Source: a virus (taxonomy: Duplodnaviria; Heunggongvirae; Uroviricota; Caudoviricetes). From it: a stretch of 41,977 nucleotides of DNA. A program made the position numbers and the translations under genes. Shown in pieces: positions 1,331 to 40,171 of this stretch. Under the pieces are notes generated by a model. The model was not told the DNA's origin, searched no databases, and worked only from the letters and a program-made list of their open reading frames with translations. The stretch is taken from the IMG/VR virus record IMGVR_UViG_2563366853_000004, positions 1 to 41,977 of that record. One strand, given 5' to 3'. Position 1 is the stretch's first letter. Every line of letters begins with the position of its first letter.

Positions 1331-1345
1331 GCTTTTTTATACTAA
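1331..1345. repeat. attL common core GCTTTTTTATACTAA, followed by the lambda P' arm
   Basis: Exact lambda att core; downstream sequence (…AGTTGGCATTATAAAAAAGCATT…CAGGTCACTATCAGTCAAAATAAAATCATTATTTG) matches the lambda P' arm with Int arm-type sites. Confidence 0.9.
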
Positions 1346-1418
1346 GTTGGCATTATAAAAAAGCATTTCTTATCAACTTGTTGCAACGAACAGGTCACTA
1401 TCAGTCAAAATAAAATCA

Positions 1419-2489
1419 TTATTTGATTTCAATTTTGTCCCACTCCCTGCCTCTGTCATCACGATACTGTGATGCCATGGTGTCCGACTTATGCCCGAGA
1501 AGATGTTGAGCAAACTTATCGCTTATCTGCTTCTCATAGAGTCTTGCAGACAAACTGCGCAACTCGTGAAAGGTAGGCGGATCCCCTTCGAAGGAAAGAC
1601 CTGATGCTTTTCGTGCGCGCATAAAATACCTTGATACTGTGCCGGATGAAAGCGGTTCACGACGAGTAGATGCAATTATGGTTTCTCCGCCAAGAATCTC
1701 TTTGCATTTATCAAGTGTTTCCTTCATTGATATCCCGAGAGCATCAACATGCAATGTTGTAGGGATGGCAATTTTTACGCCTGTTTTGCTTTGCTCGACA
1801 TAAAGATATCCATCTACGATATCAGACCACTTCATTTCGCATAAATCACCAACTCGCTGCCCGGTAACAACAGCCAGTTCCATTGCAAGTCTGAGCCAAC
1901 ATGGTGATGATTCTGCTGCTTGATAAATTTTCAGGTATTCGTCAGCCGTAAGTCTTGATCTCCTTACCTCTGATTTTGCTGCGCGAGTGGCCGCGACCGG
2001 GTTTGTTGTTATATGGCCTTCAGCTATTGCCTCTCGGAATGCATCGCTCAGTGTTGATCTGATTAACTTGGCTGACGCCGCCTTGCCCTCGTCTATGTAT
2101 CCATTGAGCATTGCCGCAATTTCTTTTGTGGTGATGTCTTCAAGTGGAGCATCAGGCAGACCCCTCCTTATTGCTTTAATTTTGCTCATGTAATTTATGA
2201 GTGTCTTCTGCTTGATTCCTCTGTTGGCGAGGATTTTTTCGTAGCGATCAAGCCATGAATGTAACGTAACAGAATTATCACTGTTGATTCTCGCTGTCAG
2301 AGGCTTGTGTTTGTGTCCTGAAAATAACTCAATGTTGGCCTGTATTGCTTCAGTGATTGCTATCCTCCTGTCTCGGCCTAATCCAAACTCTTTACCCGTC
2401 CTTGGGTCCCTATAGCAGTAATATCCATTGTTTCTTATATAAAGATTAGGGGGTAAATCCCGGCGCTCATGACTTCGCCTTCTTCCCAT
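1419..2489 (-). CDS. int: Lambda-type integrase (tyrosine recombinase)
   Basis: 356-aa translation beginning MGRRRSHERRDLPPNLYIRNNGYYCYRDPRTGKEFGLGRDRR… is essentially lambda Int as I recall it. Confidence 0.95.
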   Translation of the reverse strand: MGRRRSHERRDLPPNLYIRNNGYYCYRDPRTGKEFGLGRDRRIAITEAIQANIELFSGHKHKPLTARINSDNSVTLHSWLDRYEKILANRGIKQKTLINYMSKIKAIRRGLPDAPLEDITTKEIAAMLNGYIDEGKAASAKLIRSTLSDAFREAIAEGHITTNPVAATRAAKSEVRRSRLTADEYLKIYQAAESSPCWLRLAMELAVVTGQRVGDLCEMKWSDIVDGYLYVEQSKTGVKIAIPTTLHVDALGISMKETLDKCKEILGGETIIASTRREPLSSGTVSRYFMRARKASGLSFEGDPPTFHELRSLSARLYEKQISDKFAQHLLGHKSDTMASQYRDDRGREWDKIEIK

Positions 2490-2685
2490 TTCTGATCCTC
2501 TTCAAAAGGCTACCTGTTACTGGTCGATTTAAGTCAACCTTTACCGCTGATTCGTGGAACAGATACTCTCTTCCATCCTTAACCGGAGGAGGGAATATCC
2601 TGCACTCGCGTACCCATCGACGAACTGTTTCAAGGCTTCTTGGGCGTCGCTGGCGTGCGTTCCACTCCTGAAGTGTCAAGTACAT
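2467..2685 (-). CDS. xis: Excisionase
   Basis: 72-aa translation MYLTLQEWNARQRRPRSLETVRRWVRECRIFPPPVKDGREYLFHESAVKVDLNRP… matches lambda Xis; overlaps the int start as in lambda. Confidence 0.95.
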   Translation of the reverse strand: MYLTLQEWNARQRRPRSLETVRRWVRECRIFPPPVKDGREYLFHESAVKVDLNRPVTGSLLKRIRNGKKAKS

Positions 2686-2697
2686 CGCAAAGTCTCC

Positions 2698-2711
2698 GCA
2701 ATTACACGCAA
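2698..2711 (-). promoter_or_regulatory. pI-type CII-dependent promoter element (TTGC-N6-TTGC) at the xis 5' end
   Basis: Minus-strand sequence TTGCGTGTAATTGC, the same motif and position as lambda pI. Confidence 0.6.
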
Positions 2712-2790
2712 GAAAAGCCGCATTGATGCGGCAATGGTAGGTCTGGATATCTTGAGAAATGAACAGGCCTCATCGAGTATGAGGCTGTGG

Positions 2791-3135
2791 TTAGTCCTTG
2801 CGTAACTCGCTAATTCTTCTGTAAGTCTCTGGTGCTTTGTTTCCGTGTATCTTCATTTCAGACTTCAACAGAGCAACGAGGGAATCCCATTCGTTGAGGA
2901 TTCCTTTGAATGCCGGAACGCGCTTTGCAACCTTGTCGAATGAATCTCTGATTTCTGGAATCTGCTCAACAAGTGCAACGCATCGCCGAAAGTCTGCTGC
3001 GTCATGGGGAGCGCCGAAGTGATGACCATAGATATTCTTTTTCAGTCCACATGCGATTGAGGCAAGAGTTGCGCTACTGATGCCGACATCGCCAGTCGAT
3101 TGCCATTTCAAAACCTTCATAGCCAAATCTGACAT
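2791..3135 (-). CDS. Hypothetical protein (not a lambda gene)
   Basis: ORF with GGAG 7 nt upstream of the ATG at 3135 (MSDLAMKVLKWQSTGDVG…); same strand as the leftward operon; not recognised. Confidence 0.5.
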   Translation of the reverse strand: MSDLAMKVLKWQSTGDVGISSATLASIACGLKKNIYGHHFGAPHDAADFRRCVALVEQIPEIRDSFDKVAKRVPAFKGILNEWDSLVALLKSEMKIHGNKAPETYRRISELRKD

Positions 3136-3212
3136 TTCTTGTCTCCAATAAAAAACCGCCATCAGGCGGATTGGTGTTCTTTCAGTTCTTCAATTCGAAT
3201 ATTGGTTACGTC

Positions 3213-3524
3213 TTATTCGATGCGCAATCCTGGTATTTCGCCTTTTGATATTGCTAAGTCATAAATTTGCGCAGCACTATACCCATCTCGCATCCATGAA
3301 TCTAAGGCGCGAACAGTCTCGCTACGCTTTTTATCTTCTCTCTCATTTTTGATATCAACGAGGACATCAACGCAATTAAGGCAAATGTGGATTTTGTCCT
3401 TACATTCAATCATGGCGGCTTTACCATGATTTCCGCCACACAGTGAGCATAAATCTTCAGGGTCTGGCTGGTATTTCTGTAACGTTAGAGTGTTGAATGT
3501 TGAACAGACCATAATCATCTCCAT
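3213..3524 (-). CDS. Hypothetical Cys-rich (Zn-finger-like) small protein
   Basis: 103-aa ORF with C-x2-C … C-x2-C spacing (CSLCGG … CLNC); alternative ATG starts at 3518 and 3512; no clear SD. Confidence 0.45.
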   Translation of the reverse strand: MEMIMVCSTFNTLTLQKYQPDPEDLCSLCGGNHGKAAMIECKDKIHICLNCVDVLVDIKNEREDKKRSETVRALDSWMRDGYSAAQIYDLAISKGEIPGLRIE

Positions 3525-3583
3525 AAAACAAAACCCGCCGTAGCGAGTTCAGATAAAAGAAATCCCCGCTAGTGCGAGGATTG

Positions 3584-4789
3584 TTATTCATTGCCGATAT
3601 TCACCTTTATCGCGAACACCTTTACCGGTTTATCACCGAAGTGCGGATGTGTGATTGTCTTGATTTCATATCCGTCATACGGGACGTCAATTCTGCGACT
3701 GAAATCGTCGCGCTTCGGATATCCCTTTGTGATAATCAGGCGGCCATACTCGCGGAACATGATTCGCTTATTCCAGTAGTCATTACACAGGCGATACTCT
3801 TCCGTCTTCTCTCCGCGAATCATGGCATCGAAGTATTCACCTTTAACGGCAAGTTGCAGGTTAGCCACGGTTAACTCCTGCTTCGGTGCTGCTGGCATTT
3901 CACGCCAGTGCGTAACTGAGTGCGGATCCGGATATTCGGTGCCATCATCCCAGCGATTACCATTCCACATTGCAGACCACATCTCACCGTCTTCATACAT
4001 GACCATTACCGGAATTAACTTATCCGGCATTCGCTCACTACAGCTTATCCAACCATCCGGAGTTACCGGAGAGTTGCCAGCCAGTCTACGCAAAACAGCC
4101 TTAACCGCCTCAATACGGTCATCATCGCAATTTTCCAGCGTATCTATGCGGTCGAGCATGATGATGGCGTTATCAATATCAGGATTGCCGGTCCACTCAT
4201 TACCGCGATTGGATTCGGCAGCCTGGTTGCCACGTACTGGTTGATTCTCGGCTTTACCCTGTCTGTCGTCGCTGCATGAATGCCCTTCCAGCCAGACCAG
4301 TGCTTGTCGCATGAAATACGCAATATGCTTGCCGTGGTAATCGTCTTCATCGATGTGAAAAGCGATACTGCGGATATATTCAATTGCGTTTTCAATGGCC
4401 TCTAACGCTATCGGTGCTGGCGGAGTGGTATATAGTTTTCGACATTTGTTTATCCAACCGGCATGGTCAGGCGTGTCTGTAAAGCGCAAATCGTCTTCGT
4501 AGCCCTCACGACTACGTTCTTTCCATTCCGTCCACGGAACACCGCTATTCCAAGTGGGGCGAGTGCAGGACTGATACAGAACAGGCTCTGCTTCCAGCGA
4601 TGCCAGCACAATTCGTGCCAGCTCACGCACTACTTCCGGGGGCGCGTAACGGTCATTCAGGTCATCCCACAGGCGTAGCATGTTATCGCTACTAGGGTGA
4701 ACATCCTCGTTAGTTCCGGCAAGCGCACTAATAACCTCATCGGCTGCCTCAATAATTTTCAGAGCTTGTTCTCTGGTAATAGTGGTCAT
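3584..4789 (-). CDS. Multidomain protein: unknown N-terminal region, DUF551-like middle segment, ASCH/PUA-like C-terminal domain
   Basis: 401-aa ORF; the DGWISCSERMP…THWREMP segment resembles DUF551 of lambdoid early-left proteins; the C-terminal KGEYFDAMIRGEKTEEYR…ITKGYPK segment resembles ASCH. Domain calls are from memory. Confidence 0.6.
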   Translation of the reverse strand: MTTITREQALKIIEAADEVISALAGTNEDVHPSSDNMLRLWDDLNDRYAPPEVVRELARIVLASLEAEPVLYQSCTRPTWNSGVPWTEWKERSREGYEDDLRFTDTPDHAGWINKCRKLYTTPPAPIALEAIENAIEYIRSIAFHIDEDDYHGKHIAYFMRQALVWLEGHSCSDDRQGKAENQPVRGNQAAESNRGNEWTGNPDIDNAIIMLDRIDTLENCDDDRIEAVKAVLRRLAGNSPVTPDGWISCSERMPDKLIPVMVMYEDGEMWSAMWNGNRWDDGTEYPDPHSVTHWREMPAAPKQELTVANLQLAVKGEYFDAMIRGEKTEEYRLCNDYWNKRIMFREYGRLIITKGYPKRDDFSRRIDVPYDGYEIKTITHPHFGDKPVKVFAIKVNIGNE

Positions 4790-4799
4790 TTGTTATGCC

Positions 4800-4997
4800 T
4801 CAATACACGAAATCTGTTTTAAATTCATGGTTACATTCTGGACAGCATGTTTCGTAACCTTTTATTTCTTCACATGCCTGTTTAGCTCCAGAAAACTCCC
4901 AGAAATCTGGATCACAAAGCAGATCGAAATTGTGACCACATTTGGGACATTCGGTATCAAGTGACAGACTCCAGTAAGCAGGGGTATTTTTATCCAT
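4800..4997 (-). CDS. Small Zn-ribbon protein (double CxxC)
   Basis: AGGAG 6 nt upstream of the ATG at 4997 (MDKNTPAYW…); CPKCGHNF…CCPECNHEF motifs. Confidence 0.55.
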   Translation of the reverse strand: MDKNTPAYWSLSLDTECPKCGHNFDLLCDPDFWEFSGAKQACEEIKGYETCCPECNHEFKTDFVY

Positions 4998-4998
4998 A

Positions 4999-5187
4999 TC
5001 ACTCTCCTTTAGTGCGCAAGTGGTTTTTCCAGAGGTTTTGCGCCGCGCTGGGCTTTTTGCAAAACCCACAATCCATCATCCCGTAATATTTCATCAACCC
5101 CATCCGTCGGTTGCTGAGTCTCACCCACTGCCAGACGCCAGGAGCGTTTCTACGAACTAACAGAATCTTTGCTTTACGGTTTTTCAT
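4999..5187 (-). CDS. Small basic ORF (MKNRKAK…), uncertain
   Basis: 62-aa ORF whose stop abuts the start of the Zn-ribbon gene; weak SD; its 5' end is repeated at 5341..5360. Confidence 0.3.
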   Translation of the reverse strand: MKNRKAKILLVRRNAPGVWQWVRLSNRRMGLMKYYGMMDCGFCKKPSAAQNLWKNHLRTKGE

Positions 5188-5532
5188 CTTACTGCGTACC
5201 CTTTCTTCCGCCTGTTCTGTGACGCAGTAGGCTTACGCTTTGCGGCAAAAGCCACCTGACCAAATGGATGGAGTACCGCTATCTTATGGTTGCTAATAAC
5301 CAGCTCCACCACACGCACAGGTCGCTGTAAAAAAAGTCGTTTTGCCTTACGGTTTTTCATCGCTTTGCTCTCCTGCGTCTCTTTGCTGCTCGTCGTGCCG
5401 CTGCAATACCGGTATGGCGGCGCTTTGGTACTGGGGTGATGTTGTCAGCCATCAGGACCTGTGGCTTTGCAATTAGCGCAGAAGCCCAAAAACGAGTCGG
5501 GTACGGTAACAAGCCAATACATGCCACACGCA

Positions 5533-6087
5533 CTACTCACCTCCGTTGATGCGAATGCCTGTTGCAATGCTGTTTATGATGCTGTCAGTGCATGGGGTAG
5601 AAAGCTGGGCATCTCCAGCAATTTTCATGACATCAACATCTGCATATCGAATACCGAGGTGTATCAGACCGGCTATACCTGACTTAAGCCGAGCATTTTC
5701 CATAAACAGATCCTTTGCCCGCTGTTTTTCTGCCTCAAGCTCAACGCGCAACTTCCCTACCGTTAACGCAATATCCTCGTTCTCCTGGTCGCGGCGTTTG
5801 ATGTATTGCTGGTTTCTTTCCCGTTCATCCAGCAGCGCCAGTACGGTAGCCGGATTGGCTGCGGCGATGAATTCAGCATTGGCCTGCTGTTCCATTTGGA
5901 AATCTTCATCGAAACCGCTTTCAGGATGTGCTCCTTCAATTCTGCAAATGGGAAGATATCCAACAACTTCACGATGAATTAACGCATCATCACAATCAAA
6001 TCGGCTCTCTCCATATTCGAGCGACCATACACCACACGTTGCTTTTTCTGCCTTGGCACGCAGTGCCTGATAGTCAATCTTGCTCAC
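5533..6087 (-). CDS. Ead/Ea22-like early protein
   Basis: N-terminus [21 protein letters not shown]… and the AEFIAAANPATVLALLDE motif recalled from the Ea22-like family. Confidence 0.6.
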   Translation of the reverse strand: MSKIDYQALRAKAEKATCGVWSLEYGESRFDCDDALIHREVVGYLPICRIEGAHPESGFDEDFQMEQQANAEFIAAANPATVLALLDERERNQQYIKRRDQENEDIALTVGKLRVELEAEKQRAKDLFMENARLKSGIAGLIHLGIRYADVDVMKIAGDAQLSTPCTDSIINSIATGIRINGGE

Positions 6088-6599
6088 TGGTTGCCTCCTT
6101 TGCGAAGTTTCGCGGCAAAATCAGCCGCAACCTCTTTGACCATATTGGAAAGCGGAGTGCCACCTCCGAATTTTTCTGAGAACATCTCCACGCCCTGTGC
6201 CCGCAGTTCCGACAGGAAAGCGTCGGTGGCTTGGGTTTCGATATCGTTAATTTCAGGAAGAATCTCTTCCCATGTAGCGATATCGCCATTCAAATGCCAT
6301 CCGGCAATTCCACTGGAGTTATCCGCAACACTGCGAACGGCTTCAATAGTTTCATGCATTGCCGCATTCTCCGCTGCCAGCGCCGAAAACTTCTCGTGTG
6401 CCAACTTAACAGCCGCATCAGCCTGCTTAATTGACTCAATCGCTTTCTGGTGGTCTTCGGACAGAGCCGAAATCTTGGCCTCCGCTTCAGCAAATTTACG
6501 CACCAGATATTCAGCGTTTGTTTCGTTAACCTTTAAATCTCGTGGGATGCATTTACCTTTCAGAAAACCATCCATCTCAATTAGTGACATTTGTTTCAT
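6084..6599 (-). CDS. Hypothetical coiled-coil protein
   Basis: ORF track gives a GTG start at 6617; an ATG at 6599 overlaps the upstream stop as ATGA; overlaps the downstream gene start. Confidence 0.5.
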
Positions 6600-6760
6600 T
6601 TCTTCCCACTCCGCCACATCGCATTCAGATATTTGTTTTGATTCACTGATGGAAACGAGTTTTGCTTAAGTAATTCCTCTCTCGATGGCATTGGCTTTAC
6701 GCGTTGGCGAATAATCATTTCTGCCGGAAGAATGCCGGGATTGTATGCAAGTCCTCTCAT
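6596..6760 (-). CDS. Small hypothetical protein (54 aa)
   Basis: Hand-translated ORF below the track cutoff, coupled by ATGA overlaps at both ends (6757..6760 and 6596..6599). Confidence 0.35.
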
Positions 6761-7038
6761 GATTTACTCTCAACGAACTGGTCAATAGCCATGCTAAGTG
6801 ACACACCTAAAGTCTCGATATGCTGCTGAATATCCTGTAGCGTCTGCGCCTGAGATAACAGGATTTCACGGTTGCATAACTCTTTAACCAGATGCTCAAA
6901 CTTGCTGTAATAACCGATACGACTTAGTGTTTCTTTCCCTGCATTCTCGCCTTCTTTGATAATTCCTCTTTCGCTAAGAATCAGATCGTGTTTGGTTCCG
7001 GTGATAACGTATTTGCCGAGGTCGATGTTTAGCTTCAT
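6757..7038 (-). CDS. Hypothetical protein
   Basis: 93-aa ORF in the leftward operon; not recognised. Confidence 0.45.
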
Positions 7039-7054
7039 TGTTAATTATTCCATG

Positions 7055-7369
7055 TTAATTTATTCGTATGCCTGCTCTTTCTTCATCGAGTTTTTTTAGC
7101 TTGTATCGCATAGCCCTTACTGAATAAATTGAGCGGCAGGTTGCAATTGCTATTTCTTCTGCGGAGAACTTACCGAAAAGTGATACTTCTGCTCTTGTCC
7201 AGCGTCTTCCACGAAGTCGGCTAACAATGTCAGCGCCAATCCTTGTTGCTTTCGCCATAACTGCTTTTTCAGTCCTTTCCAGTTTTTCAGCAATAACTTC
7301 AACTGGCATTGTCGCCGATACTTCGCGCAAGAAATCGACTTCCCATTTCTCCCATGGAGTCTTTTTCAT
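7055..7369 (-). CDS. Hypothetical protein
   Basis: 104-aa ORF in the leftward operon; not recognised. Confidence 0.45.
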   Translation of the reverse strand: MKKTPWEKWEVDFLREVSATMPVEVIAEKLERTEKAVMAKATRIGADIVSRLRGRRWTRAEVSLFGKFSAEEIAIATCRSIYSVRAMRYKLKKLDEERAGIRIN

Positions 7370-7380: not shown

Positions 7381-7869
7381 TTATTTGATAAGAAGTGAAG
7401 GTTTCCCAACCTTGAGTTGAGCACCGGGAATATTTATTCCTGCTTTTAGTTGGTGCTTGATTGCCAGTTTGTCGGCTTTAATTGTCGTTTCAAACTCAAC
7501 GTATTCAGGAGGAAGGGCGCTTGAGTCGATTATTTCTACAATTTCTGACGGTTTGCGGATTGTTACCTGGTGAATACCTGCTCGAATATTTTTCTTGCCA
7601 ACCATTTCAAGCGATGACGCTATATATGATTTGATGCTGTCAATCTTATTTTGAATTACTGCGGCTCGCTCATTCAGTGACTTTGCCTCTTCCTTGAGGC
7701 GTTCGGCATAACCAGATTCATTTTTAATGACGGAAAGAAGTTGTTCTATTTTATCGGTAAATTCTCCTTCCATGCCTTCTATTGTGTCAGCAATCATCTC
7801 TGGTTCTAAATCTGAATCCATCAATTTTGCGTATTCATTGGCAATTTCATATAGTTTGCTCACTGGCAA
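7381..7869 (-). CDS. Siphovirus Gp157-like protein (RecT-associated)
   Basis: 162-aa translation resembles the Gp157 family usually found next to RecT-type recombinases; overlaps the recT 3' end. Confidence 0.55.
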   Translation of the reverse strand: MPVSKLYEIANEYAKLMDSDLEPEMIADTIEGMEGEFTDKIEQLLSVIKNESGYAERLKEEAKSLNERAAVIQNKIDSIKSYIASSLEMVGKKNIRAGIHQVTIRKPSEIVEIIDSSALPPEYVEFETTIKADKLAIKHQLKAGINIPGAQLKVGKPSLLIK

Positions 7870-8758
7870 CCTCCAGTTTCGCTTTGCATTCTATGTAAAT
7901 GGCTTGTACGTTCTGCTGCAATTTCATTCCAGATGTCAGGCGATATGCTTCTGCAAAATATCTCTTCAAATCATCCATGTTTTCAGCCTGAGCCATTTCA
8001 TCACAAAGAAGTTGTGCTTTTTCCGTTATTTCCTGCTGGCGTTTCCGTTCATCTTCGCGGATATCTTCCTCTGATTTATGCGGCATAACTGGTTCAGTCC
8101 ACACACCTTCTTCTTCGTTTAGTACGTGAATAGCACTATCAAGACGTGATGCCTTAGGCCAATACTTGCTTGCACGCTTTACGACCGTCTTTCGCGCCAT
8201 CTCATTCCAGTGATTTACCCATGGTCCTTTATCGCTGAATGCTGCCTTGCTTGTTTTCCTTACAGCCTCAATTTCAGCCAGACTCATCTCTTCCGTTAGA
8301 TAATCACCTGCTGGCGTCTTAACTGTGCAGTAAACGCCAACGATATCACCACGATCACCGAAGGCGTTGTATTTATGGGTTGGTGCTTTATCAAGCCCGT
8401 TTGACTCATAGGTATCGTTAGCATGAACAAGTTTTGCCTGACCCCATGAGATAACACCAGACTCCATTGCAATATGGAGCAATCCCATATAGCTGATATC
8501 AAGGCAAACCATGCCATCGCGCGGAACCAGATAAGCCAGTTTGCTTGCAGGGTTTAAGGTGATGCCGATCGCCGCAACATTGATGATGGCGTTCTGTGCG
8601 CTGGTTGGATTTGCCAGTGCTGTTTTAGCCAGGTAATCATTTTTCTGGAAATACTGAATTGCAAACTGGCTTTCCTTAGCCCATGTCACCGTCTGTTCAG
8701 TCAATGCTCCGCAGAATAACTGCTCCTGCTGTTTAACGAATTCAACGATATTGCTCAT
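7847..8758 (-). CDS. recT: RecT-family single-strand annealing recombinase
   Basis: 303-aa ORF; KGPWVNHWNEMARKTVVKRASKYWP resembles the conserved RecT segment NGPWVTHWEEMAKKTAIRRLFKYLP recalled from Rac RecT. Confidence 0.8.
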   Translation of the reverse strand: MSNIVEFVKQQEQLFCGALTEQTVTWAKESQFAIQYFQKNDYLAKTALANPTSAQNAIINVAAIGITLNPASKLAYLVPRDGMVCLDISYMGLLHIAMESGVISWGQAKLVHANDTYESNGLDKAPTHKYNAFGDRGDIVGVYCTVKTPAGDYLTEEMSLAEIEAVRKTSKAAFSDKGPWVNHWNEMARKTVVKRASKYWPKASRLDSAIHVLNEEEGVWTEPVMPHKSEEDIREDERKRQQEITEKAQLLCDEMAQAENMDDLKRYFAEAYRLTSGMKLQQNVQAIYIECKAKLEVASEQTI

Positions 8759-9066
8759 GCTGCTTCTCCATAAATGTGTCTGCGTTTGAATATTGCGAAG
8801 GCATATTCAGCCTTAACTCTTTCGGTTATTGCATCCCAGAACCATTCAGCGGCTTTTTCCTGATAGTTACAATCATCATCTTCCAGCCAGTCGATAGCGT
8901 CCTTAGTGTGTTCATCTGGTTTATATGAGCGAAGCATTTCGCTTATTGGGTCGCAACGTTTGCAGAGGCGATCAACTTCACTGTTGATTCGCTCGTAATC
9001 TTCATCAGTAAAACTTGCGATTATTTGCGATATTTCACGCTTATCATTCAGAGTCAGAATCATCAT
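8755..9066 (-). CDS. Hypothetical protein
   Basis: 103-aa ORF with AGGAG 4 nt upstream; stop overlaps the recT start (ATGA). Confidence 0.5.
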   Translation of the reverse strand: MMILTLNDKREISQIIASFTDEDYERINSEVDRLCKRCDPISEMLRSYKPDEHTKDAIDWLEDDDCNYQEKAAEWFWDAITERVKAEYAFAIFKRRHIYGEAA

Positions 9067-9147: not shown

Positions 9148-9300
9148 TCATTTCCTGCGATACCACGGAAGGTTGATAGCTGATTTCATCGCTTTATTTG
9201 CTTCAAGCCACATTTTTGAATCACCAATAAATCTGGCTATTACTGCTTTGTTCTGTGCAGCACGAAGCATCTGGTGATTAATGGCTATTTCATTGCGCAT
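9148..9300 (-). CDS. kil: Kil-like host-killing peptide (candidate FtsZ inhibitor)
   Basis: Hand-translated 50-aa ORF with GAGG 7 nt upstream; the IARFIGDSKMW segment resembles my recollection of lambda Kil; sits just downstream of cIII as in lambda. Confidence 0.45.
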   Translation of the reverse strand: MRNEIAINHQMLRAAQNKAVIARFIGDSKMWLEANKAMKSAINLPWYRRK

Positions 9301-9410
9301 AATAAGACCTCAACTCTTTTCCATCCGTCACGTAATTTACTGGTGATTCGTTCAAGTAAAGATTCGGAAGGGCAGCCAGCAACAGGCCACCCTGCAATGG
9401 CATATTGCAT
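9285..9410 (-). CDS. cIII: CIII-like FtsH inhibitor with shortened, divergent C-terminus
   Basis: MQYAIAGWPVAGCPSESLLERITSKLRDGWKR matches the lambda CIII N-terminus and core; GGAG upstream of the ATG at 9410; ends after 41 aa versus 54 in lambda. Confidence 0.75.
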   Translation of the reverse strand: MQYAIAGWPVAGCPSESLLERITSKLRDGWKRVEVLLCAMK

Positions 9411-9631
9411 GGTGTGCTCCTTATTTATACATAACGAAAAACGCCTCGAGTGAAGCGTTATTGGTATGCATATAAAAAGGCCCTCACACTGGAGGGCAAA
9501 GAAGATTTCCAATAATCAGAACAAGTCGGCTCCTGTTTAGTTACGAGCGACATTGCTCCGTGTATTCACTCGTTGGGATGAATACACAGTGCAGTGTTTA
9601 TTCTGTTGTTAGTGCCAAAAATAAAGGCCGA

Positions 9632-10255
9632 CTATGCGGCCTCGGAAGGAAGTCCAATCATCTTATTCAAATCTTCTACCCGTAAAGCAGGAAGTGCTGT
9701 ACTTGCTTTATCTGCTTCTTTTGGTAGCAATTCTTTGCTTTCAGGCCAAACTTCAATAAGTCGCTTAACTGTTGTGACTGAGTTCAAAGCAGCCCATACA
9801 TTTGATTCGATATCCTTTTTCTTGGCTTCAAGTTTTTGTTGCAATGCGCAGATTTCATCAAACCTTTTTGTTATTTCGTGTTCTGCGCTAAACATGCATT
9901 TATCTTTGGTCGGAGTAGGGAGCAATATATCTTCGCCGTTGCCGTCTTTCCCATATGAATGCCATCCAACCCTTCTGCCAGATACAGTCAGATAAATTGA
10001 AGTAGAACTAACATCGTATGAGTAAAATGAACATCCCATCTTTTCAAGTTCTTCACTTATAGCTACCAACTTGGATGATAACTGATCCACTTCCTCAGTT
10101 TTCTTTTTACCGCCAAACGCAATAACTCTGGCGTCAAGTGCAAGCTGGTTCTTTAACTTTGTTACTTCTTCAAGTTCAGTGAAAACCCCAGACTTAATTA
10201 AAGCGTTACGAGCGATTTCCTCTTTCATTCTCGTAGTTAAGCGGATTGATGACAT
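9632..10255 (-). CDS. Hypothetical 207-aa protein immediately downstream of N, AT-rich
   Basis: GAGG 7 nt upstream of the ATG at 10255 (MSSIRLTTRMKEEIARNAL…); no TM segments or recognisable motifs; occupies the ral/sieB position of the pL operon. Confidence 0.6.
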   Translation of the reverse strand: MSSIRLTTRMKEEIARNALIKSGVFTELEEVTKLKNQLALDARVIAFGGKKKTEEVDQLSSKLVAISEELEKMGCSFYSYDVSSTSIYLTVSGRRVGWHSYGKDGNGEDILLPTPTKDKCMFSAEHEITKRFDEICALQQKLEAKKKDIESNVWAALNSVTTVKRLIEVWPESKELLPKEADKASTALPALRVEDLNKMIGLPSEAA

Positions 10256-10266
10256 ATTAATTCCTC

Positions 10267-10593
10267 TCAAATAAGTGGTTTGCTGCCTAATTTCATTTTC
10301 TGGCGACCAACACAAGTCACGCCCATTTCACTGCGTGGCTTGCTGTACCATGTGCGCTGATTCTTGCGCTCAATACGTTGCAGGTTGCTTTCAATCTGTT
10401 CGTGGTATTCAGCCAGCACCGTAAGGTCTATCGGATTCAGTGCGCTTTCTACTCGTGATTTCGGTTTGCGATTCAGCGAGAGAATAGGGCGGTTAACTGG
10501 TTTTGCGCTTACCCCAACCAACAGGGGATTTGCTGCTTTCCATTGAGCCTGTTTCTCTGCGCGACGTTCGCGGCGGCGTGTTTGTGCATCCAT
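10267..10593 (-). CDS. N: Antitermination protein N
   Basis: MDAQTRRRERRAEKQAQWKAANPLLVGVSAKPVNRPILSLNRKPKSRVESALNPIDLTVLAEYH… is lambda N with a few C-terminal differences. Confidence 0.95.
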   Translation of the reverse strand: MDAQTRRRERRAEKQAQWKAANPLLVGVSAKPVNRPILSLNRKPKSRVESALNPIDLTVLAEYHEQIESNLQRIERKNQRTWYSKPRSEMGVTCVGRQKMKLGSKPLI

Positions 10594-10860: not shown

Positions 10861-10863
10861 ATT

Positions 10864-11914: not shown

Positions 11915-11922
11915 GACATTCC

Positions 11923-30657: not shown

Positions 30658-31136
30658 TGGAAATAAAGCTCATCGATAATCCGGTGAAGCTTGCAGAATT
30701 CCTCAACAACCCGGCAAACACGGGAAATATCGTAGACAGTGGAGATAAATACTACATCAAGCCTGATGCGGTATATCTCGGCATCTACGAAGGATTAGTG
30801 CTGGCTGGCGTTCATGAAGTGCGTAACTTCTGGCATAGCGTTGTTGAATGCCATGCGGTGTATGACCCCGGATTCCGTGGCGAATATGCACTGCAAGGGC
30901 ATCGATTATTCTGCAAATGGCTTCTCGAAAACTCACCATTCCTTAACAGCATTACCATGGTTCCTGACACCACGAAATACGGACGGTCAATTATCCGTTT
31001 GCTTGGCGCTACCCGTGTTGGTCACCTTGATGATGCTTATACCAGCAATGGAAAGCCTGTAGGCATCACGATTTATCAGTTACCGCGCTCAAAATACGAG
31101 GAGCTAAAGAATGTTAATTTTCCAGATTGCCAATAA
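30657..31136 (+). CDS. gp14-like protein (position-based call)
   Basis: ORF track starts at GTG 30654; the ATG at 30657 overlaps the needle stop (TGATG); position matches P22 gene 14. Confidence 0.5.
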   Translation: MEIKLIDNPVKLAEFLNNPANTGNIVDSGDKYYIKPDAVYLGIYEGLVLAGVHEVRNFWHSVVECHAVYDPGFRGEYALQGHRLFCKWLLENSPFLNSITMVPDTTKYGRSIIRLLGATRVGHLDDAYTSNGKPVGITIYQLPRSKYEELKNVNFPDCQ

Positions 31137-31764
31137 GCACCTCAGCAAAGCTGTTTACTGCAAAGGTGGCAGTGATGGCGGTTCAAAAGCCCAGGCACGC
31201 GCAACTGAAAAGGGTATCGAACTGCAGCGTGAAATGTGGCAAACGAACATGCAAAACCTTGCACCGTTCACGCCACTCGCTCAACAGTACGTATCAGAGT
31301 TGCAGAATCTTTCCTCTCTTCAGGGGCAAGGTCAGGCTCTTAACCAGTATTACAACTCCCAGCAGTACAAAGACCTTGCAGGGCAGGCGCGTTACCAGAG
31401 TCTGGCAGCAGCAGAGGCAACTGGTGGATTAGGCTCTACAGCAACAGGAAACCAGTTAGCAGCAATCGCACCTACACTCGGTCAAAACTGGCTGTCAGGT
31501 CAGATGAACAACTACAACAATCTGGCAAATATCGGCCTTGGCGCTCTTACAGGTCAGGCAAACGCCGGGCAGAACTATGCCAACAACGTCAGCCAATTGT
31601 ATCAACAGCAGGCGGCAGCATCTGCGGCTAATGCGAATAAACCATCAGGATTTCAGAGCGCCTTGGGTGGAGCGGCAGCAGGTGCAGCTGCAGGTACTGC
31701 AATCATGCCTGGTTGGGGTACAGCAATTGGTGCTGGCGTCGGTCTTCTTGGTTCACTTTTTTAA
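31111..31764 (+). CDS. Ejection (DNA-transfer) protein, gp7-like
   Basis: 217-aa low-complexity Gln/Ala/Gly-rich protein with GAGGAG SD; position matches P22 gene 7. Confidence 0.55.
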   Translation: MLIFQIANKHLSKAVYCKGGSDGGSKAQARATEKGIELQREMWQTNMQNLAPFTPLAQQYVSELQNLSSLQGQGQALNQYYNSQQYKDLAGQARYQSLAAAEATGGLGSTATGNQLAAIAPTLGQNWLSGQMNNYNNLANIGLGALTGQANAGQNYANNVSQLYQQQAAASAANANKPSGFQSALGGAAAGAAAGTAIMPGWGTAIGAGVGLLGSLF

Positions 31765-31776
31765 TGGAGGTGTCTC

Positions 31777-33153
31777 TTGGCTACATGGCAACAGGCTGGT
31801 AATTCAGGCGCGCTTCTTGCCGGGTTAGGCGGCATGAACTCCAACGCTCCAAGAGCAAGTGATGCAGACGCCACGCTTGCATACATTCGACAGAATAACG
31901 AGATGGAGCGTTCAGGACGTAATAACGTTGGCTTGCAGGCTTTACAGGGCATTTCATCTGTCATGGATATGTATAAGCAGATGGATCAGCAGAAGCGACA
32001 GCAAGAGTTTCAGCAGGCTTATGCTGATGCATATACATCTGGTGACCGCGATGCAATGCGAAAGCTGGCATCACAGTATCCTGAGCAGCTTGACGCTGTA
32101 AGAAACGGCATGAAATTTGTCGATGAAGACCAGCGTTCCACTGTCGGTACACTGGCAGCAAGTGCCAGACTCGCAGCTTCATCTCCAGAAGCCATGATGT
32201 CATGGTTGCAGAACAACTCATCTGAGCTTACTCGTGCCGGAGTAGACCCTCTGGATGTGGCGAAAATGTATCAGCAAAATCCACAAGGTTTCACAGAGTT
32301 TGTTGATCACCTTGGAATGGCTGCACTTGGTCCGATTGATTACTTCAATGTTCAGGACAAGATAGCTGGTCGTGAGATTGACCGAGGCAGACTGGCAGAG
32401 ACAATCCGCAGCAATCAGGCTGGCGAGGCGCTAACAGCGCGTGGTCAGAATATCACGATGCGCGGTCAGGATTTATCGATGCAGAGAGCATCAATGAAAG
32501 GGGCGGTTGGGAATAATGAGCGTACAGTTCAGTTAGCAGATGGCAGAACTGTAACGGTAGGCGGGAAGCTTCACGGCGCTGGGGCTAATGCGTTCTACGA
32601 AGGTATCGACAACGAGGGGAATATGGTTCGCGTTCCTGCTGGTTCTATTGCCGCTCCGGCTACATCGGCAGCAAGCGCGCAGAATTACGCAATGAAGAAA
32701 GATCTTGATGCAATTTCTGGTGCATCAATTGACGATCTTGGCTTCATGACTGGCATTACAGGCTCTTCAGGTTCTCCTGCTCTTGGTGCAGATATTCGTA
32801 GCCGTGCATCTGGTGGTGATCAGAGGAAACTATACAACGCTGCACAGCGAATCCAAGGAAAGATGCAGAATCAGGGCATTGCAGCAGCCAGAGACATGGG
32901 GGCATCCGGTATCAACACCGTTGCAGAAGCAAAGATGTATTTTCAAGGTATGCCACAGGTTGATTTCTCAAGCCCTGAAGCACTGCAACAATCAATGCGC
33001 GACATTCAGCAATATACCGACAATTACAACCAGCAATATAACGTTAATGTCGGTAATGGCGGGAAGAAATCATCAAGGCAACAGCCAGCTACTCAGCAAT
33101 CAGCAGGAGGTAGCTACACGTCAAAATCAGGCATTCAATTTACGGTGGAATGA
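31777..33153 (+). CDS. Ejection protein, gp20-like
   Basis: 458-aa ORF with TTG start preceded by GGAGG (6-nt spacer); position matches P22 gene 20. Confidence 0.6.
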
Positions 33154-34991
33154 TGAAAGTAACTGCAAACGGTAAGACATTTACCTTCCCTGATGGTACG
33201 AGCACGGAAGATATTGGCACCGCCATTGATGAGTATTTTGCTGGTCAGGCTGTTCAGCAACAAACAGTTAATCAGGCCAATAATGCACCAACACGGGAAG
33301 AACCATCATTGATGCAACAAGCTGGCGATTGGCTCACTGGTGGTCAAAGTGCAGGGCAAATTGCAGAACAGGCTGGTCGTGGTCTGGTAAACATACCATT
33401 TGACGTATTACAGGGCGGCGCAAGTCTGATTAATGCAATCAGTCAGGGGCTTGGTGGCCCCAAGGTTTTGGATGATGTTTATCGTCCAGTAGACAGACCG
33501 ACAGACCCCTACGCTCAAGCTGGAGAAACAATTGGCGGGTATTTAGTTCCAGGAGTTGGAACGGCAGGAAGCATGGCTATTGGATCACTGGCAGAGGCCG
33601 CAAATCAGAAAGGTGATTTCGCACAAAATGCAGCTAAAAATGCCGGAGTTAACCTTGCCGCTCAGGGTGTTCTTTCCGCAGCAGCAAAGGGAATAGGGCG
33701 TGGAATAACGGCTATAAAAGGTGATATTGCGCCAGAAGTGGCAAAGAAAATTGCCACATCAGAATCGATGGGCGTGACACCAATGACATCTGATGTTATC
33801 CCGCCGAAAAATGCTTTCACTCGCGGACTTACTCAAGATGCTGAGGGGGCTTTGCTCGGGACAGGCTCAAAGCGAGCGGAGCAATATGCAACGCGTAGTA
33901 AGCTGGTAAGCAATTATTTTGACCGTTTTGGTGAGTACAACCCTGATGATGTGGTGAGATCTCTGACCACCACGTTAAGGGGACGGAAGGATGCCGCTGG
34001 CGCTGTTATCAATGACGTCACCAATAAAATGGGTAATGCCGCAGTTGATACCACAAATACCATGAATGCTCTGAATACAGCGATCGCAAGACAGGAACGG
34101 CTTGGGACTTCTGCCAATCAAAACCTGCTTACATCCTTGCGTAACCTACGTGAAGAATTAGCAACCCCTGCAACTGATTTGGATGTTACGTTTGATCTCT
34201 TGCGCCAGCACAGAACAGCATTTAGATCTAATGTTCAGGGAGATGCCATGGTCTTCCCCAACCAGGCAAAAGCAGCTACCAATATGGTAGAGAATGCAAT
34301 GTCAAAAGACCTTCGTAACGCAGTTGCCAAAAACCTCGGTGCTTCAGACGCAGCAAAATACCTTAAAGCAAATTCCGATTATGCAAACGTTTATAATAAG
34401 GTGCTTAATAAAAACATTGCTAACAAGCTCAACAAGGCAAGCAGTGAAGCCAGTCCTGAACTTATAAATACCGTTGTATTAAGCAGAAAACCATCTGACG
34501 TGAAACGAATCTGGAGCGCACTTGATGATAAAGGGAAAGATGCTATGCGTGCAGCTTACGTCAGCAAAATAGCGGAAAAGGCCGGTGACTCTCCAGCCAA
34601 GTTCATCACTGAAGTTAATAAGCTGAAATCTCAGTCAGGCGGTGAAATTTACAACACTATTTTTTCTGGAAAGCACATGAAAGAACTTGATGCTCTTCAT
34701 GAAGTTCTACAGCAAGCAGCAAGATCAGACACCGCAAATGTAGTAACTCAGACGGGGCAATCGCAAGCCAACAGGATAAGGACGATTGGCGCAACTACGA
34801 CTCTTGGCGTATCAATGGGGCTTGAGGCTGGTTTCGGTGCAATGATGCGCTTGTATGAATCCAAAGCAGCAAGGAATGCGCTCTTACGTCTGGCAAACAC
34901 TAAAGCTGGAACGCCAGCTTATGAAAGAGCGCTAAATCAGGCGGCTACTGCCGTGCGCCCGCTCTTAGTTAACGAAGCTACCCGGCAGTAG
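33150..34991 (+). CDS. Ejection protein, gp16-like
   Basis: 613-aa ORF overlapping the upstream stop; N-terminus [33 protein letters not shown] as recalled for P22 gp16. Confidence 0.7.
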
Positions 34992-36594: not shown

Positions 36595-39540
36595 ATGACA
36601 GACATTACAGCCAATGTTGTAGTGAGTATGCCTTCGCAACTCTTCACTATGGCGCGTTCTTTTAAAGCCGTAGCCAATGGCAAAATTTATATCGGTAAAA
36701 TTGACACTGACCCGGTAAATCCTGAAAACCAGATTCAGGTTTATGTAGAGAACGAAGACGGTTCTCACATTCCTGTTTCGCAACCAATAATCATTAACGC
36801 TGCTGGATATCCGGTATATAACGGACAGATTGCCAAATTCGTAACCGTGCAAGGCCATTCTATGGCTGTTTATGATGCGTATGGTACACAGCAGTTCTAT
36901 TTTCCGAATGTGCTGAAGTATGATCCTGATCAGTTACGACAGCAATTAGAAGACCCAGATGGAGCGAATAAATACCCAAAACTTCAGATAGCAAGATGGA
37001 GAGACAGTTATGATGTAAGAGGTTGGGGGGCTATTGGTGATGGTGTTCATGATGATACATCAGCTCTATCAGAATTACTTTCTGTTGCAACAGGTGGTGA
37101 AAAGATAGATGGGCGAGGGCTTACTTTTAAAGTATCAACTCTTCCAGATGTCAGTCGATTTAAAAATGCTCGTTTTTTATTTGAGAGAATACCGGGTCAG
37201 CCTCTTTTTTATGCTTCTGAAGATTTTATCCAAGGAGAGTTATTTAAAATTACAGATACACCGTGGTACAACGCCTGGACGCAGGATAAAACGTTTGTAT
37301 ATGACAATGTCATCTATGCGCCTTTTATGGCTGGAGACCGCCATGGTGTAAATAACCTCCATGTTGCATGGGTTCGCTCAGGAGATGACGGGAAGACCTG
37401 GACAACGCCGGAATGGCTTACAGATTTACATGAAAACTATCCCACAGTTAACTATCACTGCATGAGTATGGGGGTTGTCAGAAATCGCCTTTTTGCTGTA
37501 ATTGAGACGCGGACCGTGAGCGGAAATAAACTGCAGGTTGCAGAGTTGTGGGATCGCCCAATGAGTCGCAGCCTTCGCGTTTATGGTGGTATAACGAAAG
37601 CAGCAAATCAGCAAGTCGCTTATATTCGCATTACTGATCACGGATTATTTGCTGGTGATTTTGTCAACTTCTCAAACTCTGGTGTTACAGGTGTTACCGG
37701 GAATATGACGGTGACTACTGTCATTGATAAAAATACTTTTACAGTTACGACGCAAAATACCCAGGATGTGGATCAGAATAACGAGGGTAGATACTGGAGT
37801 TTTGGTACATCATTTCACTCGTCACCATGGAGAAAAACCAGTCTTGGAACTATTCCTTCTTTTGTTGACGGAAGCACTCCTGTTACTGAGATTCACAGTT
37901 TTGCGACGATTAGCGATAACAGTTTTGCTGTTGGCTACCATAATGGTGATATTGGTCCACGCGAGCTTGGGATACTCTATTTCTCTGATGCTTTCGGTTC
38001 TCCTGGTAGCTTTGTTCGCAGACGCATACCTGTAGAATATGAGGCGAATGCATCTGAGCCATGTGTAAAATATTATGATGGCATTCTGTATCTGACGACC
38101 AGGGGGACATTAAGTACTCAACCCGGTAGTTCATTGCACAGAAGCTCTGATTTAGGTACATCATGGAATTCTCTTCGCTTCCCAAATAATGTTCATCACT
38201 CAAACCTTCCTTTTGCCAAAGTTGGCGATGAGCTGATTATTTTTGGCAGTGAGCGCGCATTTGGTGAGTGGGAAGGAGGAGAACCTGATAACCGTTATGC
38301 AGGAAATTATCCAAGAACATTTATGACCAGAGTTAACGTCAATGAGTGGAGTCTGGATAATGTAGAGTGGGTTAATGTTACTGATCAGATTTATCAGGGC
38401 GGAATAGTTAACTCTGCGGTTGGTGTTGGTTCAGTTTGTATCAAAGACAACTGGCTGTACTACATTTTCGGTGGGGAAGACTTTCTAAACCCATGGAGCA
38501 TAGGGGATAACAACAGAAAATATCCTTATGTTCACGATGGTCACCCGGCTGATTTGTATTGTTTCAGGGTGAAAATTAAACAGGAAGAATTTGTTTCAAG
38601 GGATTTTGTCTACGGAGCCACTCCTAACAGAACGCTTCCTACTTTTATGTCGACGTCAGGCGTGAGGACGGTTCCTGTACCCGTTGATTTCACAGATGAT
38701 GTTGCCGTCCAGTCACTGACTGTCCATGCAGGTACATCAGGACAAGTTCGCGCGGAAGTCAAACTTGAGGGTAATTACGCCATTATTGCGAAGAAAGTAC
38801 CGTCTGATGATGTTACCGCTCAGAGATTAATCGTTAGCGGAGGTGAAACAACGTCTTCAGCAGATGGTGCAATGATAACGTTGCATGGTTCCGGAAGCAG
38901 TACTCCACGTCGCGCGGTATATAACGCACTCGAACATCTTTTTGAGAACGGAGATGTTAAACCTTATCTTGATAATGTAAATGCTCTTGGTGGTCCGGGA
39001 AACAGGTTCTCGACAGTTTATCTTGGCTCCAATCCTGTGGTTACCAGTGACGGAACATTAAAGACAGAGCCGGTCTCTCCTGACGAAGCATTGCTGGATG
39101 CCTGGGGTGACGTCAGGTATATCGCTTATAAATGGCTGAACGCTGTCGCTATAAAGGGGGAAGAAGGGGCGAGGATACATCATGGTGTAATCGCGCAGCA
39201 ACTTCGTGATGTTCTTATTTCTCACGGACTCATGGAAGAAGAAAGCACAACATGCCGCTATGCCTTTCTTTGCTATGACGATTATCCCGCAGTATATGAT
39301 GACGTCATTACTGGCCAAAGGGAAATGCCGCTGACTGATAATGACGGGAGCATCATTGTTGATGAGGATGATAATCCAGTGATGGTAATGGAAGACATCA
39401 TTGAGCGCGTTGAAATAACGCCAGCAGGATCTAGATGGGGGGTCAGACCTGATCTCTTATTCTATATCGAGGCGGCATGGCAGCGCAGAGAAATAGAAAG
39501 AATAAAAGCTAGGTTAGACTTAATAGAAGGGAAGCACTAA
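36595..39540 (+). CDS. Tailspike: P22-type N-terminal head-binding domain, endosialidase-like catalytic region, C-terminal intramolecular chaperone domain
   Basis: N-terminus [58 protein letters not shown] matches the conserved P22 tailspike N-domain; the central region is unlike P22 gp9 and its endosialidase assignment is from memory of CUS-3/K1F; the last ~160 aa resemble the self-cleaving chaperone domain with a candidate cleavage motif VVTSDGTLK. Confidence 0.8.
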
Positions 39541-39684
39541 ATGTTTCGTTGGCGTCAAAAATATGAACTGCTCACATAAAGAAGTAAGTACATTGGCAAA
39601 AAATATTGACGTCAACGAAATTAAATATAAAACATCATGCAGACATATTACCAATATTAATATAAGGTAATAAAAATATAATTT

Positions 39685-39711
39685 ACAAAAAAGCCCGTTG
39701 GAAGCGACGGG
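39685..39711 (-). terminator. Intrinsic terminator oriented against the tailspike gene
   Basis: GCCCGT-tggaagcg-ACGGGC followed by TTTTTTG on the minus strand. Confidence 0.5.
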
Positions 39712-39968
39712 CATTAACCGCGGTAATGGATAAATTATTAATGTTTTTAGATTGTGAACGATATCATATTGTGCGGAAGTAGTGAAGTAACCATGTAAAA
39801 TGATTGTTTCATAGCCTATGAGACACACAAGGCTTTGTGCTCTTCGATAGTTGTTAAGGCGGATCACTCTACATTCTCATCAAGCCAATCCGCCCACCAC
39901 TGCATCATTTCTCTGCGCTTATCGAGATACTGAGCATGGTTGTAAATTCAACTAACCAAGTCCGTTGA

Positions 39969-40011
39969 CAAAAAATTAGCGCAAGAGGACAAAAAATCAC
40001 CTTGCGCTAAT
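39969..40011 (-). terminator. sib/tI: int retroregulation hairpin and terminator
   Basis: Perfect 11-bp inverted repeat ATTAGCGCAAG / CTTGCGCTAAT with 15-nt loop, followed by TTTTTTG on the minus strand, directly outside the P arm of attR; matches lambda sib/tI as recalled. Confidence 0.75.
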
Positions 40012-40156
40012 GCTCTGCCTCAGGTCACTAATACTATCTAAGTAGTTGATTCATAGTGACTGGATATGTTGTGTTTTGTAGTATTATGCAGTCTATTATT
40101 TAGACTAAATCTTTCATAACATATTGATATTTACAGTGTTTTCTGTTTCTCGTTCA

Positions 40157-40171
40157 GCTTTTTTATACTAA
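40157..40171. repeat. attR common core GCTTTTTTATACTAA, preceded by the lambda P arm
   Basis: Exact core repeat; upstream sequence (…CAGGTCACTAATACTATCTAAGTAGTTGATTCATAGTGACTGGATATGTTGTGTTTT…) matches the lambda P arm; downstream CTTGAGCGAAACGGG is the host attB arm. Confidence 0.9.

Follow-up and report, generated by a model that had tools for sequence, protein, structure and literature searches.

The window analysed here comprises positions 1 to 41,977 of the IMG/VR virus record IMGVR_UViG_2563366853_000004, and positions 1331-40171 of it very probably constitute a single, apparently intact prophage of 38.8 kb. Judged from its sequence, this element is a temperate P22-like podophage (Lederbergvirus; Sf6/HK620/CUS-3 lineage) with a lambda-type integration cassette and a K1 tailspike. 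An initial annotation had presented the same stretch as a lambda-regulated, P22-packaged mosaic at the lambda attB site and as a clean example of modular exchange between two phage types. We compared lambda, P22, Sf6, HK620 and CUS-3 with the window by blastn and tblastn, and came to a different view of its ancestry, while retaining its position and much of its gene content.

The ends of the prophage are set by two exact occurrences of the 15-bp lambda att core, GCTTTTTTATACTAA, where none would be expected by chance. Both lie on the plus strand, at 1331..1345 (attL, B-O-P') and 40157..40171 (attR, P-O-B'), and no third or hybrid core occurs in the window even when one mismatch is tolerated. 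The junctions read CCTGCTTTTTTATACTAAGTTGGCATTA on the left and TTCAGCTTTTTTATACTAACTTGAGCG on the right. The flanking genes are ybhC (1-1284, minus strand) and ybhB (40262-40738, minus strand), and when the flanks are joined (1000-1345 with 40172-40520) they match, at 100% and over their full length, the empty ybhC-ybhB site of Nissle 1917, ATCC 11775 and other strains. In 3492 of 5426 complete Escherichia coli genomes, nothing interrupts this site. The reconstituted empty site and the two exact cores together place the insertion precisely at the classical lambda attB and mark it as Int-type, as first annotated.

Next to attL, int (1419..2489, minus strand; 356 amino acids) and xis (2467..2685, minus strand) encode full-length lambda integrase and excisionase, with 98.9% and 98.6% amino acid identity to the lambda proteins. 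A cII-binding repeat of the form TTGC-N6-TTGC, TTGCGTGTAATTGC, lies at pI (2698..2711, minus strand). The att-int-xis-pI block (1331-2716), which contains the P' arm, is 98% identical to lambda in nucleotides, and the homology stops at 2716. At the opposite end we found the P arm of lambda attP (39966..40156, plus strand; 87% nucleotide identity, the blastn alignment extending over 39966-40175), with the arm-type Int sites P1 (CAGGTCACTAAT) and P2 (ATAGTGACTG) conserved. The sib/tI hairpin and its U-run, read on the minus strand at about 39978-40023, fold with -28.2 kcal/mol (z = -4.8); as in lambda lysogens, sib/tI is found at the attR end, past the P arm. The lambda int, xis and sib/tI of the initial annotation are thus all in place. 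A tRNA scan of the window found no tRNA gene, hence neither a tRNA-linked att site nor an Sf6-like tRNA pair after Q.

Directly before the lambda sib/P arm lies an 84-bp remnant (39864..39947, minus strand) homologous to the last 84 bp of the IntS-type integrase gene of CUS-3 and HK620. The homology breaks off at 39947/39948, and PGAP annotates a partial coding sequence at this position in a prophage 99.95% identical to this one. From this stump we infer the footprint of an integration-cassette swap, from the argW/IntS type to the lambda type. A cassette of about 1.6 kb (sib/tI, P arm, core, P' arm, int, xis and pI) would have displaced the IntS/argW-type cassette of a CUS-3-like ancestor. Entry into the chromosome was, as the sequence shows, by lambda-type Int recombination at the canonical attB between ybhC and ybhB. 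Gally carries the same integrase stump and P arm, at about 90% identity.

The genes for packaging and the virion stand in the order terS, terL, portal, scaffold, coat, gp4, gp10, gp26, gp14, gp7, gp20, gp16 and tailspike (21552-39540), and every structural protein is full length relative to its Sf6, HK620 or P22 homologue. The terminase genes (21552..23386, plus strand) encode a small subunit of the Sf6 gp1 type (90.8% amino acid identity; Pfam Sf6_terminase, 151 bits; PDB matches 4dyc and 3hef) and a large subunit 99.8% identical to Sf6 gp2, which matches the solved structure of that protein (PDB 4idh). Among the virion assembly genes (23389..34991, plus strand), portal, scaffold, coat and gp4 are of the Sf6/HK620 type (99% amino acid identity). 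They are followed by gp10, a gp26 needle with an Sf6 knob, a divergent gp14 and P22-type ejection proteins gp7, gp20 and gp16 (60-76%). Nucleotide identity is 96.7% with Sf6 over 21552-30659 and 96.8% with HK620 over 21546-30029. P22's own terS, terL and coat gave no tblastn match in the window; the head is therefore of the Sf6 sequence type within the P22-like group, and not that of P22. The lambda head, tail and terminase proteins (Nu1 and A) were likewise all without a tblastn match in the window, and lambda cosN was not found there with up to three mismatches. The initial annotation was therefore right about a P22/Sf6-like, headful-type morphogenesis block and about the lack of Nu1, A and cos.

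The lysis cassette, with S, R, Rz and an embedded Rz1 (19564..20781, plus strand), had been attributed to lambda. This holds for S (99.1% amino acid identity) and R (98.7%), but Rz and Rz1 are of the P22/Sf6 type, Rz being 58% identical to lambda Rz. Sf6 has a short-tailed virion and terminally redundant, circularly permuted DNA, as was also shown for Gally (PMC9928086). Given these homologies, the late operon would encode lysis by S/R/Rz/Rz1, headful (pac) packaging of the Sf6 type and assembly of a P22-like virion. Within the otherwise conserved block, the gp14 homologue (30654-31136, plus strand; DUF2824, 216 bits) is a highly divergent allele: its identity to the gp14 proteins of P22, Sf6, HK620 and CUS-3 is only about 22%, against 93-98% between the adjacent gp10 and gp26 and the corresponding proteins of Sf6.

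The tailspike (36595..39540, plus strand; 981 amino acids) joins a P22-type head-binding domain to a K1 endosialidase and an S74 chaperone domain. Pfam recognises Head_binding, End_N_terminal, End_beta_propel (774 bits), End_beta_barrel, End_tail_spike and Peptidase_S74 in it. Head_binding covers residues 1-113 (222 bits) and finds the head-binding domains of P22 and Sf6 in the PDB; the tailspike also matches the endoNF structures 3gvl and 1v0e. Across all 981 residues, the protein is 98.98% identical to the endosialidase of CUS-3, whose GenBank record cites direct assay evidence. As an endosialidase, it would allow the phage to adsorb to and degrade the polysialic-acid capsule of K1 strains.

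Is this prophage still a functional phage? Several observations weigh against our reading of it as an intact, K1-specific one. The P arm is just 87% identical to lambda, and of its sites P1 and P2 alone were read as conserved, the function of those for Xis, IHF and Fis being assumed. The open reading frame at 3584-4789 is an unusual in-frame fusion, although it lies in a non-essential region. The hexamers equivalent to Pant next to mnt are degenerate, so that any present role of Mnt, with arc and ant missing, is uncertain. The capsule locus of the host lies outside the window. Finally, inducibility and the making of virions are predictions from the sequence, and point mutations in essential genes are possible. 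A defective, cryptic prophage, incapable of excision or particle formation and retained for its lysogenic-conversion or exclusion genes, would fit the fused reading frame and the missing arc, ant and neuO. It would also fit a report that prophages of the CUS-3 kind often decay and that insertions of 20-50 kb occur at this site (PMC9659370). We nevertheless consider it unlikely: terminase, portal, coat, ejection proteins, tailspike, lysis proteins, Int, Xis, CI, N, Q, O and helicase are all full length relative to functional homologues, no insertion sequence element lies inside the prophage, and both att cores are perfect. At 38.8 kb, its length is also normal for the group (39.0 kb in Sf6 and 38.3 kb in HK620).

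Part of the regulatory circuitry is of the lambda type. The N antiterminator (10267..10590, minus strand; 107 amino acids; Pfam N36, 91 bits) is 91.4% identical to lambda N. Its nutL site (10704..10734, minus strand), with boxA CGCTCTTA and boxB GCCCTGAAGAAGGGC, is identical to lambda's, and nutR (11923..11954, plus strand) has a boxA variant with one mismatch to lambda, AGCTCTTA, and the exact lambda boxB GCCCTGAAAAAGGGC (11940-11954). N of lambda specificity would act at nutL and nutR to antiterminate the early operons. The cII gene (12034..12327, plus strand; 97.9% amino acid identity) has an oop-type terminator within its region (12276-12303, minus strand), and TTGC-N6-TTGC sites for its product occur at pRE (12043-12056) and paQ (18444-18457), besides pI. 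The cIII gene (9285..9423, minus strand) had also been assigned to lambda; its first 33 residues (94% identity) and its RNA thermoregulator (9365-9423; Rfam) are indeed lambda-like, but no more of the protein is, and the C-terminus is Sf6-like. This thermoregulator was the sole hit at Rfam gathering thresholds, with no further curated RNA. Together, CII and CIII would drive pRE, pI and paQ in the establishment of lysogeny.

Late control is also of the lambda type. The segment with Q, paQ, pR', the leader with tR' and orf-64 (18157..19076, plus strand) encodes a Q protein 100% identical to lambda's, and 18147-19076 is 97% identical in nucleotides to lambda 43875-44805. The pR' hexamers are TTGACT-17-TAAATT (18823-18851), and the leader fold shows the tR' hairpin ending near 19052. 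Lambda Q, acting at pR'/tR', would switch on a single late operon. All these regulatory steps are proposed on the near-identity to characterised lambda proteins and sites, and N with its nut sites, cII with pRE and pI, and Q with pR'-tR' are borne out as originally listed.

The description 'lambda-regulated' fits this N, cII/cIII and Q circuitry, but does not extend to immunity, replication or recombination. The immunity region (10740..11920), comprising OL/pL, cI, OR/pR and cro, is not that of lambda: the DNA-binding domain of lambda CI, lambda cro and the lambda OL/OR operators are absent from it. The cI gene (10928-11587, minus strand; HTH_3 and Peptidase_S24 domains) is 70.6% identical to lambda's overall, and lambda-like (94% in nucleotides) at 10934-11338 only, in its C-terminal half. 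The cro gene (11700-11914, plus strand) has no match in lambda, P22, Sf6, HK620 or CUS-3. The block as a whole is 99.3-99.7% identical to that of vB_EcoP-720R6, Dewey, Louie and vB_EcoP-683R2, and 93% identical to immunity regions of Stx phages. A heteroimmune cI/cro switch would thus govern pL and pR, with SOS cleavage of the repressor through its S24 domain.

For replication, we found an O-like initiator (Phage_rep_O; 12499..13359, plus strand) with 49% amino acid identity to the N-terminal half of lambda O, and within its gene four 19-nucleotide iterons TGTCAC-N7-GTGACA (12853-12938), spaced 20-24 bp apart. This origin layout is lambda-style, and the iteron sequence differs from that of lambda. 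In place of lambda P, which has no tblastn match in the window, there is a primase-helicase of 626 amino acids with Toprim and DnaB-like domains (13467..15347, plus strand). Replication would use the O-like initiator at the four iterons together with this primase-helicase. The recombination module (7381..9066, minus strand) consists of a Gp157-like gene (7381-7869), recT (7847-8758) and a small open reading frame (8755-9066), and is 97.5% identical in nucleotides to that of Gally. Lambda exo, bet and gam have no tblastn match in the window, and Red is not present.

The nin region (15425..18160, plus strand) contains ninB, ninE, an open reading frame (15999-16442), ninF, roi (16604-17326), a gene for a DUF1364 protein, rusA (17613-17975) and ninH, and its NinB is 99.3% identical to lambda's. 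Of the ninB, ninD, ninF and ninH listed initially, all but ninD were confirmed; the gene in that place is ninE. Searches with the lambda proteins (tblastn) found no ninC, ninD, ninG or ninI in the window. The kil gene (9148..9300, minus strand, coordinates approximate, mapped from Sf6) had been taken for lambda's. It is of the Sf6/HK97 type, in a kil-cIII region 98.5% identical to Sf6 in nucleotides, and lambda Kil has no tblastn match in the window.

Does this amount to a recent hybrid of two parents, a lambda early and regulatory half joined at sharp boundaries to a P22 late half? Three lambda segments of 97-100% identity (att-int-xis, nutR-cII and Q-pR'), the P22 type of sieA, orf59a and mnt, and the absence of lambda morphogenesis genes speak for such an origin. 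We regard it as very improbable all the same. Lambda DNA aligns over just 6.5 of the 38.8 kb, and P22 over only 10.3 kb, much of it at 72-83%. The immunity, replication and recombination modules come from neither phage; terS, terL and coat of P22 are without a match and the head is of the Sf6 type. Besides those already given, the lambda-aligned segments include the 5' end of cIII with the tL region (9318-9635), N (10292-10619), nutR-cII (11921-12367, 98%), ninB, ninE and ninF, and S, R and the start of Rz (19244-20592). Further lambda proteins without a tblastn match in the window are Ral, SieB, RexA, RexB, Cro and Ren. P22-like phages are lambdoid by definition, and the same lambda-like segments are routine in them. 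When we kept only stretches at least 90% like lambda and absent, at a threshold of 85% or more, from P22, Sf6, HK620, CUS-3 and Gally, four were left: att-int-xis (1331-2716), the C-terminal half of cI (10934-11338) and two short ones after pR' (18881-19076 and 19244-19313). Nearly all of the lambda-like sequence is thus shared with P22-like phages, and the idea of a clean exchange between two phage types does not hold.

Nor do the joints fall where such a hybrid would have them. A sharp module junction had been placed between Rz and terS, yet Sf6 is collinear with the window over 19323-30659, lysis-to-terS included, at 94-97%, and the Rz-to-terS stretch is collinear in Sf6, HK620 and CUS-3. 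The sharp joints that we could locate lie at 39947/39948, between the integrase stump and the lambda P arm, at about 2716, and, in the tailspike, behind the head-binding domain. That two elements sit in tandem at attB, a lambda-like int-xis remnant beside an independent P22-like prophage, is barely credible: two integrases are represented (an intact lambda int and the IntS-type stump) and about one complete genome in three has the site occupied or interrupted, but there are just two att cores, the stump comes without an argW-type att, the early-left operon is unbroken between pL and xis-int, in the manner of a single lambdoid genome, and many strains and vB_EcoP-720R6 have the same architecture.

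The reading as a single Lederbergvirus prophage is also illustrated by its closest relatives, which are Sf6, HK620, CUS-3, Gally and vB_EcoP-720R6. CUS-3 (E. coli K1 strain RS218; CP000711) shares the sequence downstream of the tailspike and the 3' end of its int (99.7% in nucleotides), as well as terL, gp10, the lysis genes and the roi-rusA-ninH and cII segments (95-100%). However, CUS-3 uses an IntS-type integrase and resides at argW, possesses phase-variable neuO, ant and two copies of mnt, and has portal, scaffold and coat proteins of another sequence type (0-55% amino acid identity), the head here being Sf6-type. Sf6 and HK620 (Lederbergvirus) share terS-gp10 (in Sf6, up to the gp26 needle) at 96.7-96.8% and the lysis cassette; in addition, HK620 has the lambda-type Q (99% amino acid identity) and the roi-rusA-ninH block, and Sf6 the same N/nutL type and kil-cIII. 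Both differ from the present prophage in their tailspikes (an endorhamnosidase and, in HK620, an endo-N-acetylglucosaminidase), their IntS-type integrase at argW, their immunity and replication genes and their ejection proteins gp20 and gp16.

Escherichia phage vB_EcoP-720R6 (ON470605; Lederbergvirus according to GenBank) occupies the same site and matches 36188-40741 at 99.2%, a stretch that holds mnt, the endosialidase tailspike, the stump, the lambda P arm and ybhB; its record runs on into the bio genes. It also shares the region from immunity to primase (10681-15413, 98.8%), but has a CUS-3-type head and another Q, with tRNAs. A prophage of strain CUVET21-PYO5 (NZ_CP116948) has the same site and the same right end, with other immunity and Erf-type recombination genes. 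With lambda, the element has in common the attP core, Int, Xis, sib/tI, pI, N with nutL and nutR, the 5' region of cIII and its thermometer, cII with pRE and paQ, NinB, NinE, NinF, Q with pR' and tR', S and R. Unlike lambda, the window has no lambda head, tail, terminase, cos, Red, gam, rex, cro, operators, P, ren or ninC/D/G/I.

Gally (of strain LF82) is another P22-like temperate podophage with a lambda-family integrase. Its RecT module (97.5%) and its head module (96.5%) are shared with the present prophage; it has another tailspike, and its int and xis are only 81% identical in nucleotides. We considered whether Gally occupies the same site and rejected this, as it lacks an exact lambda core and its int is at 81%. 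Experiments have shown Gally to be an inducible podovirus with pac packaging and lateral transduction (PMC9928086). By its description, phiHS3 of E. coli HS is similar: a P22-like temperate podophage with a lambda-family integrase and another tailspike, which integrates upstream of ybhC and was shown by experiment to be inducible, with pac-type packaging and lateral transduction (preprint 10.64898/2026.05.19.726188). For CUS-3-like phages, a location between pgl and bioA has also been reported (PMC9659370). The literature therefore already contains both CUS-3-like prophages at this site and P22-like phages that integrate beside ybhC, and what is new in the present element is how known modules are combined, not the kind of phage.

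What sets this copy apart is the way its early modules are combined. Its identity to the CUVET21-PYO5 prophage is 99.95% over the late half (21889-41977) and 100% over 1-3867; between these two stretches, differences occur module by module. Coverage of the early half (1331-22000) does not exceed 67% in any complete RefSeq E. coli genome. Conservation is thus strongly asymmetric, with a late half nearly identical to one dog-derived E. coli prophage and an early half that is not, and recombination appears concentrated in the early region.

The early-left region also contains accessory genes without an assigned function (2791..7369, minus strand; PHROG families), among them a 401-amino acid DUF551/ASCH-like fusion (3584..4789, minus strand), an Ea22-like gene (5533-6087, minus strand) and a DUF5405 gene (6757-7038, minus strand). 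In the fusion, a DUF551 protein is joined in frame to a 94-amino acid ASCH-like gene (phrog_625) that is separate in related prophages. The fusion joint, 3867/3868, falls exactly at the gene boundary, where the 100% identity to the CUVET21-PYO5 prophage stops, and the downstream ASCH-like gene has a GTG start here, not ATG. Position 3867/3868 is a recombination joint that left the DUF551 gene fused to its neighbour. Between N and cIII, the pL operon encodes a protein with an Nmad5 domain (9632..10315, minus strand; PF18757, 241 bits). Nmad5 stands for 'nucleotide modification associated'; PADLOC gave no match for the protein, and its PHROG has no known function. None of ten accessory proteins, Nmad5 and SieA among them, matched PADLOC defence models, and in PHROGs the same ten fall only in families of unknown function. 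Outside the prophage, beyond ybhB, a gene of the TnpB/InsQ RNA-guided endonuclease family (40847-41977, plus strand) runs off the end of the window; since bioA directly follows ybhB in vB_EcoP-720R6, this gene is a strain-variable insertion.

Between gp16 and the tailspike lies what is left of an immI region. It contains sieA of the P22 type (35014-35508, minus strand; 92.7% amino acid identity), hkcC (35539-35904, plus strand), orf59a (35918-36097, minus strand) and mnt (36197-36448, minus strand; 75.9% to P22). Together with gp7, gp20 and gp16, the genes sieA, orf59a and mnt are P22-type (78% in nucleotides, 60-98% in amino acids). The full P22 set of mnt, arc, ant, sar and the Pant/Pmnt operators is not there: ant has no match in the window, and arc matches only inside mnt, as a paralogue. 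As the initial annotation had it, mnt is an immI remnant. SieA and Mnt would be leftovers of the P22 immI region that are expressed in lysogens. The spacer between mnt and the tailspike (36448-36595), identical in Gally, contains a palindrome resembling the Mnt operator, AGACCACAGTGGTCT (36512-36526). A Mnt-controlled promoter for the tailspike in lysogens was considered and discarded: the Pant-equivalent hexamers are degenerate, and a consensus scan found no promoter there.

Downstream of the tailspike, the homology with CUS-3 skips positions 2434-1591 of that phage, where the cassette for the O-acetyltransferase gene neuO and its AAGACTC heptad repeats are located. This 843-bp cassette is flanked in CUS-3 by an 11-bp repeat, TAAATATAAAA; in the alignment, the present prophage shows a single copy of the repeat (39622..39632, plus strand) and no phase-variable neuO cassette downstream of the tailspike. 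Without neuO, the phage could not O-acetylate the capsule. At least 80% of 38700-40171 is covered in 150 complete E. coli genomes. Among the matches listed, neuO stands beside the lambda P arm in CE10 (O7:K1) and ExPEC XM, and is missing from CUVET21-PYO5, MS20659 and 998; some others have the argW/IntS arrangement. It is possible, and we put it forward tentatively, that the single TAAATATAAAA site is the ancestral 'empty site' of the neuO moron, from before its insertion, rather than the outcome of a later deletion between repeats. If so, neuO would be defined as a discrete cassette, and this prophage would be a natural neuO-minus, otherwise intact K1-specific temperate phage at a handy attB-lambda site. 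Such a phage would be suited to testing how capsule O-acetylation benefits the phage, for example through superinfection exclusion.

For annotation, we would not call the element a lambda-P22 hybrid; it should be entered as a K1-specific Lederbergvirus prophage (CUS-3/Sf6-like) whose integration cassette is of the lambda type. It may serve as a teaching example of lambdoid mosaicism, with a cassette swap that left the old integrase stump behind and an early region far more reshuffled than the late one. The tailspike predicts that the host is, or was recently, K1-encapsulated, with no NeuO-mediated capsule O-acetylation from this prophage. By analogy with Gally and phiHS3, a pac-type phage at attB-lambda that packages toward attR could also laterally transduce the ybhB-bio-uvrB side of the chromosome.

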